From the IMG/VR virus record IMGVR_UViG_3300045988_089052, positions 1 to 38,404 of that record: 38,404 bases of DNA; one strand, 5' to 3'. Origin of the DNA: a virus. This document shows positions 26,578 to 29,919 of the stretch, piece after piece. A model generated the notes under the pieces. It worked only from the letters and a program-made list of their open reading frames with translations. It was not told the DNA's origin and ran no database searches. Position 1 is the first letter of the stretch. Each line of letters begins with the position of its first letter. Made by a program: the position numbers and the translations under genes.

Positions 26578-27816
26578 TTAATACCAATTCACCACCCTTT
26601 CGCTCAACGGAATGTATTTTTCCTTTCCCGCTTTATATCGCAGAATTGTCATCACAAAATATCTTGTTTCGTCCATTGCATGATCGTTTTCTTTGATTGG
26701 TCTATCTTCATTCGATTTTTCGTCCCATCTATAAAGCCCAAATTCTCGGATTTCATCTTTGCAATCACGATGTATTTTTATCGTGCCATCCTGCAAATAT
26801 CTTGCAGTTGTTACAATCCCAGGTACTACATCGTTTACAGCCTTACGCACGGAAAATCTATGATGCCGATGAATTACCTCAATGAACGATGCGGCGGACG
26901 GGTCCACAACAACCGAACGAATTTGTAAATCGCCTGCCAAATTTTCAAGCTCTGAATAATATTCTTCATCCGTTTTATTCAATCGCTCGTCTCTGCCGGA
27001 ATAGTAATACTCTCGAATCCTTGTTGCGTGTTTCCCATCCCAACACCAAAGCCCTGCCGAGAATGGATTTAGCGTACCATAGTCTACGCTGATGTAATAT
27101 TCTCCGCTGTCCGGAATATCATCTACAATATTTGACTCGCCAAACATGGGATAAATCAGCCCGTCAGCAGCAACCCACAATCCTCGTATGTATCGGTCGT
27201 AGAAAACGCCCGTATACTGCGTTCTGTACCGTTCAAGCGTTTTTTCGCTTAATGATGGGTTGTCCGTCATTTCAAAATGCAAATATAGGGCATTTCGCTC
27301 TTTATGTTTCTTTATCCAGTTAATATAAAACCAATGATGTGGATTGTCCGGGTTGCAAGAAAACCACAGTCTTGCGCCATCCACCGAGCATCGAGCAAGG
27401 GCCTGATTAAAAAAACTTTCTGGCATCAGCGCCACTTCGTCAAGCAGTACCCCTGCTAAAGTTCTCCCTTGTATCAATGCAAAAGAGGATTCGTCTTTTC
27501 CACCAAAAACCTCAAAATAGTTTGTAACAGCTCCACGTCGCACTTCTAAAATTTTATCAGCGCGCCTCCATCGCAAAGTATATCGTTCTTTTGCAAGTGT
27601 CATTGAAACAAACGGAACCACAATATTTTTGCTTGCGCTGTCTACAGTTTTACCGCAAATTCCGAATCGCTGACCGGAAAACTCCCGCATTGCCCAATCT
27701 ACAAACGCCCACATCATAATAGATGTCTTTCCAGAGCGCACAGCACCATCGCAGATGATGGCGTCGTATTTGGAGTAAGGGAAAGCGAGGATTTTCTTTT
27801 GTTTATCGCTAATCAT
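26578..27816 (-). CDS. terL: Terminase large subunit (PBSX / terminase_3-like)
   Basis: Walker A motif GAVRSGKT near the N-terminus. 412 aa. Overlaps the stop of terS. Confidence 0.9.
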   Translation of the reverse strand: MISDKQKKILAFPYSKYDAIICDGAVRSGKTSIMMWAFVDWAMREFSGQRFGICGKTVDSASKNIVVPFVSMTLAKERYTLRWRRADKILEVRRGAVTNYFEVFGGKDESSFALIQGRTLAGVLLDEVALMPESFFNQALARCSVDGARLWFSCNPDNPHHWFYINWIKKHKERNALYLHFEMTDNPSLSEKTLERYRTQYTGVFYDRYIRGLWVAADGLIYPMFGESNIVDDIPDSGEYYISVDYGTLNPFSAGLWCWDGKHATRIREYYYSGRDERLNKTDEEYYSELENLAGDLQIRSVVVDPSAASFIEVIHRHHRFSVRKAVNDVVPGIVTTARYLQDGTIKIHRDCKDEIREFGLYRWDEKSNEDRPIKENDHAMDETRYFVMTILRYKAGKEKYIPLSERVVNWY

Positions 27817-28228
27817 CGCTTTCCAAATCCTCCGCTATTTCTCTCAAGCTCTTCGACAATCCATCCTCTTTTGCCGTTTCTGCCGTAGCTCCTCCAAAGG
27901 CTGTGAATTTATCGATTAATGTACCAATCGCCGTTGTAACTTCAGAAGCCGTTCTTGCATCTTCGATTTTTTTAGGAAGTACACGTAATCCAACTTCAAT
28001 GATGTTGCACACGGCGTTTCGCTTGCTTTCCATATAAGCCAAAATATCTGCCGTATTCTCTTCTTTTTTTCGTTTGAGATTTTCTGCGATTCCTTGAGAT
28101 TCTTCAACAACACGACGTACTGTTTGCCCACAAACCCCATTTTTTTTTGCAGTAGCATTATAGCTTTCAGTTTCAAGATAATCGGCAATAATTTTCTTTT
28201 TCTGCTTGTCGGTCAACCTTGCAGCCAT
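27809..28228 (-). CDS. terS: Terminase small subunit
   Basis: ATG 28228 follows AGAGGGTGG. The N-terminal HTH is LTDKQKKKIIADYLETESYNATAKKNGVCGQTVRRVV. Positioned upstream of terL. Confidence 0.65.
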   Translation of the reverse strand: MAARLTDKQKKKIIADYLETESYNATAKKNGVCGQTVRRVVEESQGIAENLKRKKEENTADILAYMESKRNAVCNIIEVGLRVLPKKIEDARTASEVTTAIGTLIDKFTAFGGATAETAKEDGLSKSLREIAEDLESDD

Positions 28229-28342
28229 AACACCACCCTCTTTATATAAACCCATATAGGCTAAATCTTCTTGCCGGGTCTTCCCCGGCATCATTGCTTT
28301 GTTGACCCGGTATGCGTCCGGGTTTCTTTACCAATTGGTATG

Positions 28343-28419
28343 TGGAGAAAACGGGATTTGAACCCGTGAACGCTACCAGGCTATACCTTTAAGCTGCTGT
28401 GCCGCCCAGCTCTTTCTCC
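28343..28419 (-). ncRNA. tRNA-like element without a canonical anticodon arm
   Basis: Acceptor stem GGAGAAA/TTTCTCC (7 bp). D arm GCTG-GGCGGCA-CAGC. T arm ACGGG-TTCAAAT-CCCGT. Discriminator A, with no encoded CCA. The 23 nt in the anticodon position form only GCU/AGC plus a mini-hairpin AGGU-aua-GCCU. Confidence 0.5.
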
Positions 28420-28582
28420 ATGCATCGCCGTCTTTCCGGCGTGTCAGCCTCTTGTACTTTGAGGCGCGTCACGTATTACGGGCCTCTAATTACCCGTTCT
28501 TTGATACGAATCGAAGCCGTTCTCAACCGATACGTTACGCTTTGGTGTGCCGATTGACCTCACGCAGACAAGCAACACATAT

Positions 28583-28702
28583 TCAAACAAGGAACAGCAT
28601 TAAAATCATATAGAAAATCGCTCTTTGGCGATCATCTTTTAATAGCCAATATATTGCCATAATTGCTTCAATTACAAAGGCTATCGCTTTGATTATCTGC
28701 AT
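28583..28702 (-). CDS. 39-aa hydrophobic peptide
   Basis: AGGAGGA lies 7 nt before the ATG. The product is MQIIKAIAFVIEAIMAIYWLLKDDRQRAIFYMILMLFLV. It is an AT-rich island inside GC-rich surroundings and forms the 3' end of the implausible 168-aa track ORF. Confidence 0.5.
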   Translation of the reverse strand: MQIIKAIAFVIEAIMAIYWLLKDDRQRAIFYMILMLFLV

Positions 28703-29074
28703 GCTGTATCCTCCTATAGGTCGACCCCGCCATGGTACGCTGCCTTTCGGCTCGCGTGGCGGGGTCTGTATCACAATCCGGGCTGCTGTATCTACCGGCG
28801 CGCATGATACGCTCCTACAAGGAGCTTGCGCGGCTCCATTCTGCAAAAAGCGCCCAAGGACTGGGACGCTTTCGTATACTCCTTCTACACATGGCAGATG
28901 AGCTATAAAACTGATGCGGGTTATATTCCCGACCCGCGGCGGTATTAACCGGCTCTCACGGTTGGCACGTCTGCCAGCGTCGGCCCCACAGGATCGCCTG
29001 ATCGGTGGCAGCTCGCTTTTTTCCGCGCTTTGCCCGGGCTTTGACAAATCAGAGTCATGGCGTTCCCTAGCGCA
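28703..29074 (-). ncRNA. Candidate structured RNA or leader (GC-rich, many perfect stems)
   Basis: Stems include a 10-bp stem 28723-28732/28757-28766 capped by GCC-GAAA-GGC; a GGAGC/GCUCC/GGAGC triple at 28811-28837; UGGCA-gacg-UGCCA at 28963-28976; AACCG/CGGUU at 28947-28963; and CUGCCA/UGGCAG at 28971-29011. There is no credible ORF. Confidence 0.35.
28845..28869 (-). terminator. Terminator-like hairpin inside the structured region
   Basis: Minus-strand RNA GCGUCCCA-guccu-UGGGCGC followed by UUUUU. Confidence 0.5.
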
Positions 29075-29108
29075 GAAAGGAAAAAGCACGCAGATTTCTC
29101 TACGCGCT
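29075..29108 (-). terminator. Terminator after the late-activator gene
   Basis: Minus-strand RNA AGCGCGUAG-agaaau-CUGCGUGCU (9 bp including two G-U pairs) followed by UUUUCCUUUC. Confidence 0.55.
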
Positions 29109-29165
29109 TTCTCGATTATATTTTACCGCATCATTTGTATAGCTTTCAAGTCTCACAAAGTCCCA

Positions 29166-29603
29166 TTATGTACCATTGTGTCCCAACTCACAAAAATGCT
29201 TCACTCCATCATCATGCAAACGATATATTGTCATCTTTCCCACACTCATTTTTCCATAAAGCGATTCTTTAACCTGTGGCCATGACATCTGCTGTCCATA
29301 TCTAAAATCCGTGTATCTTAGCCGCAATATTTCTCGTTCTAACGGGTCTTGAAGCGAATCAATGGCTTTATCCACTTCACGCATCACAGCAAGGTTCTTG
29401 GCGTAATCCTCGCTGTGTGAGGCGCACCAATCAACTCGCATATCTACTGCTTTCATCGGGTCGTGTGCGCCTATGTGCTGGCTACCATCTCCGGTCTGTG
29501 GTGTAATGCTGGTTTCAGCGGATTTCATCGCCATTATGCGTTGCTCAATGCTTCGATTCGCCCGCCAATATCGTTCATAGTTTTTAAGCTTTTCATATTC
29601 CAT
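29166..29603 (-). CDS. ArpU/RinA-type late transcriptional activator (sigma region-4-like)
   Basis: 145 aa. LQDPLEREILRLRYTDFRYGQ...MTIYRLHDDGVKHF. It is the last gene before the packaging module. Confidence 0.55.
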   Translation of the reverse strand: MEYEKLKNYERYWRANRSIEQRIMAMKSAETSITPQTGDGSQHIGAHDPMKAVDMRVDWCASHSEDYAKNLAVMREVDKAIDSLQDPLEREILRLRYTDFRYGQQMSWPQVKESLYGKMSVGKMTIYRLHDDGVKHFCELGHNGT

Positions 29604-29919
29604 TTATCAAACCTCCGCGCATTGCCACATATTTCCCGTAGCTTACAGGGCATTCTCCGCGCTTACGGCGCTCGTTGTTATATGTATCCAGCTCCCTTAA
29701 AAATGCACCGAGCTTGTCCCGCTCCCTTATTTTCTCGGCTTTTCTTTTCAATTTTAGTTGTTCTTGTGCTATTTTTTGATTTTCCATTCTTACCTTTTTA
29801 GCGCATGCATCACAATATTTCCGAGACGAGTTCGGTCTCTTTAATATCATCGGAGCGCCACACACTTCACACTGTCGCTCAATCATCATCGAACCTCCAT
29901 TATTCGCTTGCTTCGTCAT
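29593..29919 (-). CDS. Zinc-ribbon protein
   Basis: CEVCGAPM...YCDACAKK (CxxC x2) followed by a basic coiled coil. Confidence 0.5.
   Translation of the reverse strand: MTKQANNGGSMMIERQCEVCGAPMILKRPNSSRKYCDACAKKVRMENQKIAQEQLKLKRKAEKIRERDKLGAFLRELDTYNNERRKRGECPVSYGKYVAMRGGLINGI

Follow-up and report, generated by a model that had tools for sequence, protein, structure and literature searches.

In a 38,404-nucleotide (nt) viral DNA (IMG/VR record IMGVR_UViG_3300045988_089052, the whole of which we refer to as the window), an ArpU-like regulator gene and the packaging gene terS are separated by roughly 0.9 kb of sequence that is dense in hairpins when read as minus-strand RNA. We favour the view that this stretch is the leader of the late operon and that it carries an accessory array of RNA cassettes, acquired independently of one another and probably serving counter-defence by antitoxin mimicry. 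We put the probability of this reading at about 0.55. The array brings together an orphan, loop-swapped hairpin of the abiF class, a member of a widespread and previously undescribed small RNA (sRNA) family and a pseudo-transfer RNA (pseudo-tRNA). The initial annotation of this DNA had suggested that the region encodes one or more functional RNAs. Compensatory and G-U changes in its hairpins do reveal functional-looking RNA elements on the presumed transcribed strand, but the idea of a single large RNA does not hold, as the region is a mosaic in near-identical relatives.

Relatives were gathered with the terS and activator proteins, through protein homologues together with their contigs, and with DNA patterns, and were compared by BLAST and alignment. 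Among thirty-odd related gut-phage contigs at least six cassettes are present or absent independently of each other, with sharp module boundaries, and all are positioned downstream of an ArpU/Ltr-type late promoter. For example, in relatives L082 and L087 the first hairpin (T1) is followed at once by the ~110 nt that adjoin the packaging genes. In L001/L081, with 100% identity in terS and 97% in the activator, we find just a diverged copy of a 10-bp hairpin and a tRNA-like element; the GC-rich scaffold and a small open reading frame (ORF) are gone. L084 has the scaffold and the tRNA-like element without the small ORF, L090 and L091 have a different terS after the hairpin, and L092 (4925-6440) inserts an N6-adenine methyltransferase-like ORF with an NPPY motif between the abiF-class hairpin and the terS leader. 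Relatives with 66-71% activator identity (L117, L118-L123) carry HicA/HicB, or HicB alone, in this slot on the opposite strand. The slot after the ArpU-like gene is a general hot spot for cargo. The scaffold itself has two internal segments that are swapped wholesale (slot 1 at 29015-28980 and slot 2 at ~28906-28845); compared with L091, L092 and L139, slot 1 is 13% identical and its flanks are 99% identical. As read from these alignments, the leader is a mosaic of independent RNA cassettes and not one large RNA.

The proposed function turns on the 10-bp stem-loop (HP3 in Table 1), which folds at -30.8 kcal/mol (z -6.4). In its alignment 97.4% of cells pair, two pairs are compensatory and four vary via G-U. 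A 17-nt pattern from its 3' half retrieved the same 52-nt sequence from unrelated prophage contigs, where a TTGATT-17-TATAAT promoter precedes it by 9 nt and an AbiD gene follows directly. This order of promoter, hairpin and AbiD gene, with the exact window sequence, is found in L102, L104, L105, L107, L108 and L140, and the gene behind the hairpin matches Pfam Abi_2 (7e-41) and PADLOC AbiD (1.5e-80). AbiD homologues of 58% identity are preceded by bona fide abiF motifs, which read UGAUACAGACCCCGCCACGC-CUCUCAACGAU-GCGUACCAUGGCGGGGUCG and then a U-run, with a TATAAT promoter upstream. These motifs score 39-49 bits on the Rfam abiF model (RF03085, gathering threshold 37) and 42-54 bits on R1, the model of the window hairpin that was defined in this analysis.

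The window hairpin has the layout of these motifs (28766-28723), with an outer stem of ~6 bp, an unpaired A, a 3-bp inner stem, a loop and, in the 3' arm, a bulge of 5-6 nt. The outer stem CCCGCC/GGCGGG, the inner stem CGC/GCG, the bulge UACCAU and the 5' flank UGAUACAGA are identical to those of gut-prophage abiF motifs. Aligned in this way, the window hairpin is the abiF scaffold base for base and differs only in its terminal loop, where a mini-hairpin, GAGCCGAAAGGCA, replaces the conserved CUCUCAACGAU. Because of this loop the Rfam model misses it, and a search of 28100-29300 with a cutoff of E <= 10 gave no abiF match. Each of the two loop types accompanies one of the two AbiD variants.

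In the window the hairpin is an orphan. Searches with tblastn found no Abi_2 or AbiQ genes in the window or in any scaffold-bearing locus, the hairpin does not stand between a promoter and an Abi_2 gene, and no U-run directly follows it. Model R1 found no extra copies of this class in the window or its relatives. Slot 2 of L084-type phages is an abiF motif with the canonical loop, equal to the consensus, on a different outer stem (28.3 bits, E 0.006 locally); since it comes in addition to the hairpin, these phages hold two specificities. A second orphan copy of the class is found in L106, with its own promoter and U-run, a UUUUU loop and no Abi_2 gene nearby. The same contig has a complete type III toxin-antitoxin locus at 1-1200, consisting of a promoter, 2.3 copies of a 37-nt repeat, a terminator and ToxN/AbiQ; the orphan hairpin lies beyond this locus and has a separate promoter. 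No ToxI-like tandem repeats of ~36 nt were seen by eye within 28229-29110, and an AbiQ gene is also absent there.

What might such an orphan be for? RCd22, an RNA from the phi027 prophage of Clostridioides difficile with two abiF motifs, is the RNA antitoxin of an Abi_2/AbiF toxin, which it neutralises in cis and in trans by direct binding, with the stem structure required (Saunier et al., bioRxiv 10.1101/2025.04.15.648962). Contigs bearing AbiD and contigs bearing the scaffold share samples 7000000111 and 3300045988. An orphan antitoxin-type RNA with compensatory changes, found in the same samples as AbiD prophages, has the look that a decoy antitoxin would be expected to have.

Slot 2 holds another transferable element, a unit of two hairpins. 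The initial annotation had pointed to an internal terminator-like hairpin here; it is present (T2, -14.2 kcal/mol, z -3.5) and belongs to a covarying family. Very different phages and environments are represented among the 54 IMG/VR stretches that contain a 20-mer taken from the hairpin just before T2. The family, which we define here as the CAUGU-loop family together with its covariance model R2, has the consensus NCUC-A-UCUGC-CAUGU-GUAGA-AG-GAGN, followed by 3-6 nt, a variable hairpin and usually a U-run, and its units often directly follow a consensus promoter. With the conserved hairpin GCUC-A-UCUGC-CAUGU-GUAGA-AG-GAGU, the window copy is among the best members (74.4 bits, E 5e-18 on R2). 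In the second hairpin of the family 9 of the 11 pairs show compensatory changes and 95.5% of cells pair, a figure reached by none of 500 shuffles. Covariation is also seen in the first hairpin, with changes in tandem second copies (UGUAC/GUACA), in SPbeta (G-C) and in P1, where A-U replaces G-U. Rfam 15 has no match to the unit.

In about half of its loci this unit lies within a tRNA array or close to one, and it often shares the strand of the tRNAs. Their RNA neighbours above threshold are drum and DUF3800-VIII; below threshold they include GOLLD (100.7 vs 150 bits), DUF3800-I, skipping-rope and YrlA. The GOLLD match is full-length and lies at L198:2536-2952, in a 118-kb gut phage contig whose tRNA island also has a drum RNA (80.8 bits), DUF3800-I (42.9 vs 44.2 bits) and the sRNA unit. 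In L186 (4130-4215, minus strand), and similarly in L177, L192 and L199, a tRNA-like sequence (GCGGUGGCGGAAUAGGUAGACGC...GGUUCGAAUCC...) that is called by neither Rfam nor ARAGORN comes right after the unit, in parallel to the tRNA-like element of the window. A constant protein partner was sought and rejected, as the downstream genes are mutually unrelated. These surroundings bear on the context that the initial annotation had drawn on, large RNAs such as ROOL and GOLLD next to tRNAs. It is upheld indirectly, by the recurrence of the unit in islands of tRNAs and non-coding RNAs, but the window itself is neither, with no match to ROOL or GOLLD in the whole window at gathering thresholds or in 28100-29300 at E <= 10.

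Unannotated copies of the unit are also found in GenBank, in P1 and P7, in SPbeta/phi3T and relatives, and in two Vibrio phages. The copy in P1 (L210, NC_005856 ~52,900-52,980, minus strand) and P7 scores 51.6 bits on R2 and sits between pmgF and the convergent rlfB-rlfA, where rlfA encodes a DUF3800 protein; it has its own TTGAAA-17-TAGATT promoter and terminator. In SPbeta (L211, NC_001884) the yonN-yonK spacer (330-2003) comprises 1.7 kb without annotated genes and contains two tandem units (1501-1628) and a DUF3800-VIII RNA (1682-1747, 47.5 bits). The start of the late operon, which depends on YonO, has been mapped ~1.2-1.4 kb upstream of yonK, and the published primers bracket L211 583-826, that is, 700-900 nt upstream of the sRNA unit (PMC5467207). 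These primer positions rule out that the late start coincides with the unit. As the unit lies downstream of the mapped start, a second temperate phage of Firmicutes, unrelated to the one studied here, also has it in a long non-coding leader of its late operon.

That the cassettes of the window also lie in a late leader is suggested by the promoter region. The minus-strand order is the ArpU-like regulator gene (29603-29166), ~0.94 kb of intervening sequence, terS (ATG at 28228), terL and an SPP1-type portal gene, with a helix-turn-helix in the terS product and Terminase_6N in that of terL. The regulator resembles phrog_36 'transcriptional regulator' (E 1.3e-13) and also phrog_248 'transcriptional activator' (6e-7), with no match in a Pfam search; its homologues form 37 clusters, none of them named, and it is a candidate member of the characterised Ltr families (ArpU, RinA, LtrA-C). 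TGRKAC repeats begin at 29185, 29175, 29165 and 29155, span the stop codon of the ArpU-like gene (29168-29166) and abut the -35 box of a promoter with a predicted start near 29113, and T1 begins within a few bases of this predicted +1. The repeat words change with the activator variant (TGGCAC four times in L117, TTGTAC three times in L092). The TTG, the TA...T and their spacing are retained even with a 66-71% identical activator and unrelated spacer sequence. The layout of four repeats and promoter agrees with the experimentally defined Ltr/ArpU architecture (PMC3753634). In the short relatives, on a reading of L082, no promoter was seen downstream of T1; we therefore infer that the late transcript, which would encode the packaging and structural proteins, has this whole stretch as its 5' untranslated leader.

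We propose that the array works as follows. Host RNA polymerase would start at the promoter between the activator stop codon and the first hairpin, switched on by the activator bound to the four repeats at 10-nt spacing. The array would then comprise T1, a lineage-specific GC-rich scaffold with two swap slots, the sRNA unit with its own terminator in slot 2, the abiF-class hairpin, a gene for a small membrane peptide, the degenerate tRNA-like element, which could serve as a processing point for RNase P/Z, and the proximal terS leader. Late firing would produce large amounts of the cassette RNAs, as short RNAs when transcription ends at T1 or T2 and as messenger RNA (mRNA) when it reads through, and the cassettes would be dispensable for late expression as such. 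Acting in trans, the orphan abiF-class hairpin would be a decoy antitoxin that binds and neutralises Abi_2 toxins of the AbiD/AbiF type, made by prophages that reside in the same hosts. The pseudo-ToxI of phage PhiTE, which is directed against ToxIN, is a precedent. A bolder version, which we hold to be possible rather than probable, is that exchangeable 'warhead' RNAs in late leaders disarm RNA-regulated abortive-infection toxins in general. The hairpin of the window would match one AbiD variant, sister phages would add a second hairpin for another variant, the sRNA unit and the tRNA-like element would belong to the same toolkit, and the GC-rich core would be a scaffold or processing platform.

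Table 1. Features between the activator gene and terS, in the order of the presumed transcript.
Feature	Position	Strand	Remarks
Four direct repeats TGGGAC/TGGTAC/TGGGAC/TGAGAC	29150-29185	minus	exact 10-nt spacing; presumed binding site of the late activator
Late promoter (predicted) TTGAAA-18-TAAAAT (TACAAT in relatives)	29120-29149	minus	best promoter match in the region, 10/12
T1 hairpin GCGCGUAGA-GAAA-UCUGCGUGC with A/U pairs and U-run	29081-29113	minus	terminator-like, at the predicted 5' end of the transcript
Module A, 5' part of the GC-rich scaffold	29016-29080	minus	CCGGGC and GCGCGG can pair ~250-300 nt downstream
Variable slot 1, hairpin	28980-29015	minus	unrelated longer sequence instead in L091/L092/L139
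Core1 (hairpins UGGCA-GACG-UGCCA, CCGUG...CGCGG, GCGGG...CCCGC)	28908-28979	minus	most conserved block
Two-hairpin sRNA unit, variable slot 2	28833-28906	minus	hairpin 28903-28878 and putative intrinsic terminator T2 28873-28845
Core2, GGAGC/GCUCC/GGAGC triple (28837-28811) and GCGUAUCAUGCGC...GCCCGG	28778-28844	minus	95% identity
abiF-class hairpin (HP3) GAUACA-GACCCCGCCA-CGC-[GAGCCGAAAGGCA]-GCG-UACCA-UGGCGGGGUC	28720-28772	minus	orphan, no Abi gene nearby
Gene for 39-amino-acid hydrophobic peptide (MQIIKAIAFVIEAIMAIYWLLKDDRQRAIFYMILMLFLV)	28583-28702	minus	Shine-Dalgarno sequence AGGAGG 28715-28710
Module B, untranslated spacer with hairpins	28420-28582	minus	travels with the small ORF (jointly present or absent)
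tRNA-like element, acceptor/D/T arms intact, non-canonical anticodon arm	28343-28419	minus	RF00005
Proximal terS leader, GC hairpins 28323-28305 and 28289-28273	28229-28342	minus	in all close relatives with the packaging module

Much of the initial description of this stretch stands. The hairpins that it listed were all found at their minus-strand coordinates, and its GC-richer central part is evident, with a GC fraction of 0.565-0.575 over 28700-29099 and 0.385-0.46 in the flanks. The density of hairpins is borne out by a 401-nt core that folds at -167 kcal/mol (z = -4.2, equalled by none of 100 shuffles). The opposite strand gives z = -3.85, and since the antisense fold is almost equally stable, fold energy alone cannot choose the strand. 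At predicted pairs, most substitutions can be accommodated by G-U pairing if the RNA is read from the minus strand, and not if it is read from the plus strand; this one-sided variation speaks for a minus-strand RNA, but a global fold cannot be derived from it. The region has no match among GenBank phages by blastn.

The T1 hairpin folds at -22.3 kcal/mol (z -7.2). It is found in 13 of 13 close relatives, where it is nearly invariant (two single-base variants), its loop included. In core2 the hairpin GCUCC-UUGUA-GGAGC is retained in every variant via G-U changes. Core1 and core2 were found outside this phage family neither in IMG/VR, nor in JGI metagenomes, nor in GTDB genomes. Exact-pattern scans of IMG/VR for the GC-rich core returned the same family only, the metagenome scan added 10 more copies from it, the genome scan gave a single chance hit inside a gene, and nhmmer found no divergent homologues among 139 loci. 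The scaffold is represented by 18 distinct sequences with almost no informative variation, too few to obtain covariation statistics for core1, core2 and the long-range helices.

As for coding potential, the view that a 39-codon ORF is the sole credible one holds, as it is the sole ORF under purifying selection in the stretch. Nine codons vary across five alleles, 7 of them synonymously and 2 conservatively (the other two frames have 4/8 and 1/11). Judged by these substitutions the ORF is a gene, and we read its product as a membrane peptide; the peptide has no match in Pfam, PHROG or PADLOC. A type I toxin-antitoxin reading of this ORF relied on an antisense promoter-like site (28554-28583, plus strand) and was dropped because the antisense -35 box is not conserved in L083 and L086. 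A 168-amino-acid ORF had been set aside as non-protein-like, and we agree: Pfam and PHROG searches found no family match, and the frame is broken by indels or a stop in five relatives (L083, L085, L089, L133 and L136), so that we rejected it as a gene. Antisense ORFs were dropped on the same grounds, broken frames in relatives and no family matches.

The suspected tRNA-like element is real, with 37.8 bits on RF00005 (gathering threshold 29), a cloverleaf as its minimum free energy fold and a canonical T loop, UUCAAAU. No other match to Rfam in the window is credible; weak ones to Guanidine-II (13.9 bits), permuted transfer-messenger RNA (17 bits), small nucleolar RNAs and trpB were dismissed as chance. 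ARAGORN does not find the element with default settings and finds it at relaxed -ps80 only, with a 4-pair anticodon stem, a U.U mismatch, the loop AAAGGUA and a 13-nt variable region; U33 and a purine at 37 are lacking. In our assessment it is not a decoding tRNA. No copy was found outside this phage family.

The proximal terS leader is the only piece common to all close relatives that carry the packaging module, where it precedes terS or an HNH-endonuclease gene; its two hairpins fold at -24.7 kcal/mol (z -4.4). In L084 and L086-L089 the gene in the place of terS is HNH-endonuclease-like, which suggests that a cos-type packaging module has been swapped in behind an identical proximal leader. 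The start of this leader in L082 (4525-4570, window 28342-28300) has a D-arm-like GUUGGUAGAGCA/CCAGUUGGUAGAGCA, then a 6-bp stem with a 7-nt loop like an anticodon arm; a second tRNA gene may have left it behind.

Some further observations concern the neighbourhood and the relatives. A minus-strand gene at 29593-29919, which overlaps the start of the ArpU-like gene, encodes a 108-amino-acid zinc-ribbon protein with weak matches only, to PHROG families of unknown function and a faint one to an HNH-endonuclease PHROG. In GenBank, the large terminase encoded by terL (26578-27816) is closest to those of the lemur-gut Dulem virus 33 (67%), Flavonifractor phage Chenonceau (62% over 75%) and Eggerthella phage PMBT5 (55%). 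All scaffold-bearing contigs with a named source are from the human gut. The slot of L117 and L118-L123 holds GC-rich terminator-like hairpins besides the Hic genes. Downstream of a 60%-identical ArpU-like gene, L112 (4440-5540) and L113 (4440-5100) have ~1 kb of repeated palindromes (GGGCGCGGAACCCGCGCCCCCTACGAGG..., GGCGGCCAATGGCCGCC), very rich in GC, that resemble repetitive extragenic palindromic (REP) elements; in L112 they are followed by polysaccharide-synthesis genes and not by phage late genes.

Several other explanations deserve consideration. Could the region be one large structured RNA of a new class, comparable to ROOL, GOLLD and OLE, with a scaffold at ~29080-28720 and the swapped segments as its peripheral arms? 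Core1 and core2 are conserved at 95-99% (mean pairwise identity 98.6% and 95%, respectively), compared with 83% for the adjacent activator gene, the fold is unusually stable, the CCGGGC/GCCCGG and GCGCGG/CCGCGC long-range pairings recur in independent folds of several variants, and peripheral arms are indeed exchanged for other hairpins, as the variable segments are here. We nevertheless regard this as unlikely. Compensatory changes, which the initial annotation had made one of its touchstones, are found in the internal-terminator family and in the 10-bp hairpin, but the long-range pairs never covary among the relatives. There is no Rfam match, an intrinsic terminator is predicted mid-way, two of the supposed arms are autonomous elements found independently elsewhere, and the entire module is missing in near-identical phages. 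The family is also tiny (18 sequences, human gut only), so the high identity of the core may reflect recent spread and not constraint. A leader that gates late transcription is another candidate. Here T1 and T2 would terminate, and antitermination through a lambda Q-like activator, a put- or EAR-like RNA or a ligand-sensing fold would permit read-through. The order of promoter, hairpin and U-run is conserved, with T1 starting at ~+1 to +7, a second hairpin and U-run (T2) comes 240 nt downstream, the GGAGC/GCUCC/GGAGC hairpins are mutually exclusive, and the motif RNA of the abiF system acts partly via premature termination (bioRxiv 10.1101/2025.04.15.648962). Against this, T2 arrives within an imported sRNA unit, whose replacements sometimes have no U-run (L088, L089 and L136: GCGCCACUUGC), and more distant relatives have just a 4-bp hairpin without a U-run at the transcript start. 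A scaffold acting as antiterminator for T1 is ruled out by phages in which the promoter, T1 and terS persist without any of the GC-rich module, and no evidence was found for the put-like role once envisaged. Known antitermination or riboswitch families, such as HK022 put and EAR, have no Rfam match here at E <= 10. We consider such gating improbable; regulation by the mutually exclusive GGAGC hairpins would be compatible with the sequence, but nothing speaks for it.

The stretch might instead be debris without present function in a recombination hot spot, the decaying remains of an Abi cassette since lost, of earlier tRNA genes and of an sRNA gene. The anticodon arm of the tRNA-like element is degenerate, the proximal leader of L082 resembles a tRNA fragment, the abiF-class hairpin has no toxin gene and the slot carries unrelated cargo in relatives (HicAB, methyltransferase, HNH). 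Decay of this kind sits poorly with non-coding blocks that are better conserved than the adjacent protein gene, with an orphan hairpin whose pairing is upheld by compensatory changes in the diverged copies L081 and L106, and with an sRNA unit that has one of the best scores of its family, and we give it little credence. Less credible still is a DNA-level pac or cos signal recognised by the small terminase, the alternative raised in the initial annotation. The stretch is immediately upstream of terS. Two GC-rich inverted repeats lie in its last ~110 nt (28342-28229), which are conserved whether terS or the HNH-endonuclease gene follows and which are the only possible packaging site. For the GC-rich part the idea finds no support, as the scaffold and small ORF are missing in relatives that share terS (L082, and L001/L081 at 100%). 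The pairing-preserving G-U changes indicate an RNA on one strand, and no direct repeats of a protein-binding type were seen by eye within 28229-29110.

The reading as a cargo array with a decoy antitoxin has weaknesses of its own, and the following points weigh against it. What the sequences show is the anatomy, the mosaicism, the membership in RNA families and the covariation of hairpins; transcription of the region, the action of the terminators and the role in counter-defence are deduced. The transcription start, termination at T1 and T2 and processing are all predictions from sequence. Core1 and core2 are the most conserved 140 nt, yet they have no role in the proposed scheme. If termination at T1 were efficient, an unexplained read-through mechanism would be demanded; T1 and T2 may be of little consequence, or they may limit read-through and yield short RNAs. 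The Rfam abiF model rejects the window hairpin, its binding to an Abi_2 protein is predicted, and the functional tie of its loop variant to AbiD comes from one gene family in one arrangement. Late expression may come too late against an early-acting Abi system, and the orphan hairpin could simply be left over from an Abi cassette that the phage has lost.

The Abi_2 family is very widespread and is the proposed ancestor of Cas13. If the hairpin neutralises AbiD/F-type toxins, this would be a natural case of RNA antitoxin mimicry directed against that family; to our knowledge there is essentially one studied example of such mimicry so far, that of PhiTE against ToxIN. It would also provide a function for long non-coding leaders of late operons. 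The abiF-class scaffold carries different terminal loops that are paired with different AbiD variants, which suggests how the specificity of these antitoxins may be encoded. Independently of any role in counter-defence, the sRNA unit is strongly covarying and has gone unannotated in the model phages P1, P7, SPbeta and phi3T.

How does this leader compare with known systems? As in the control regions of Ltr, ArpU and RinA (PMC3152322, PMC3753634), the activator gene is directly upstream of terS and each activator variant has its own repeat words. The staphylococcal and enterococcal models, however, have a short leader and a terminator-like hairpin ahead of the promoter, whereas here ~880 nt of RNA cassettes separate the promoter from terS and the hairpin comes after the promoter. 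SPbeta also has a long non-coding late leader with the two-hairpin unit, beside the orphan phage RNA DUF3800-VIII, although it uses a different polymerase, belongs to an unrelated lineage and has no detected abiF-class hairpin or tRNA-like element. With ROOL, GOLLD and the islands of non-coding RNAs and tRNAs in large phages the window shares the clustering of non-coding RNA modules with tRNA-like sequences; it matches ROOL and GOLLD in neither sequence nor structure, and its array is less than 0.9 kb and lies inside what would be an mRNA leader. The motif RNA of RCd22 has the same hairpin architecture as the window copy, which is an orphan in a late-operon leader. With its pseudo-ToxI, an RNA that mimics a type III antitoxin, phage PhiTE overcomes abortive infection by ToxIN (PMC3475682). 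Like PhiTE, the phage studied here carries an RNA that resembles the antitoxin of a host abortive-infection toxin, without carrying the toxin. The case of PhiTE is genetically proven and involves tandem 36-nt repeats and a ToxN/AbiQ toxin, whereas ours would involve a single abiF-class hairpin, a presumed Abi_2 target and a function deduced by analogy.

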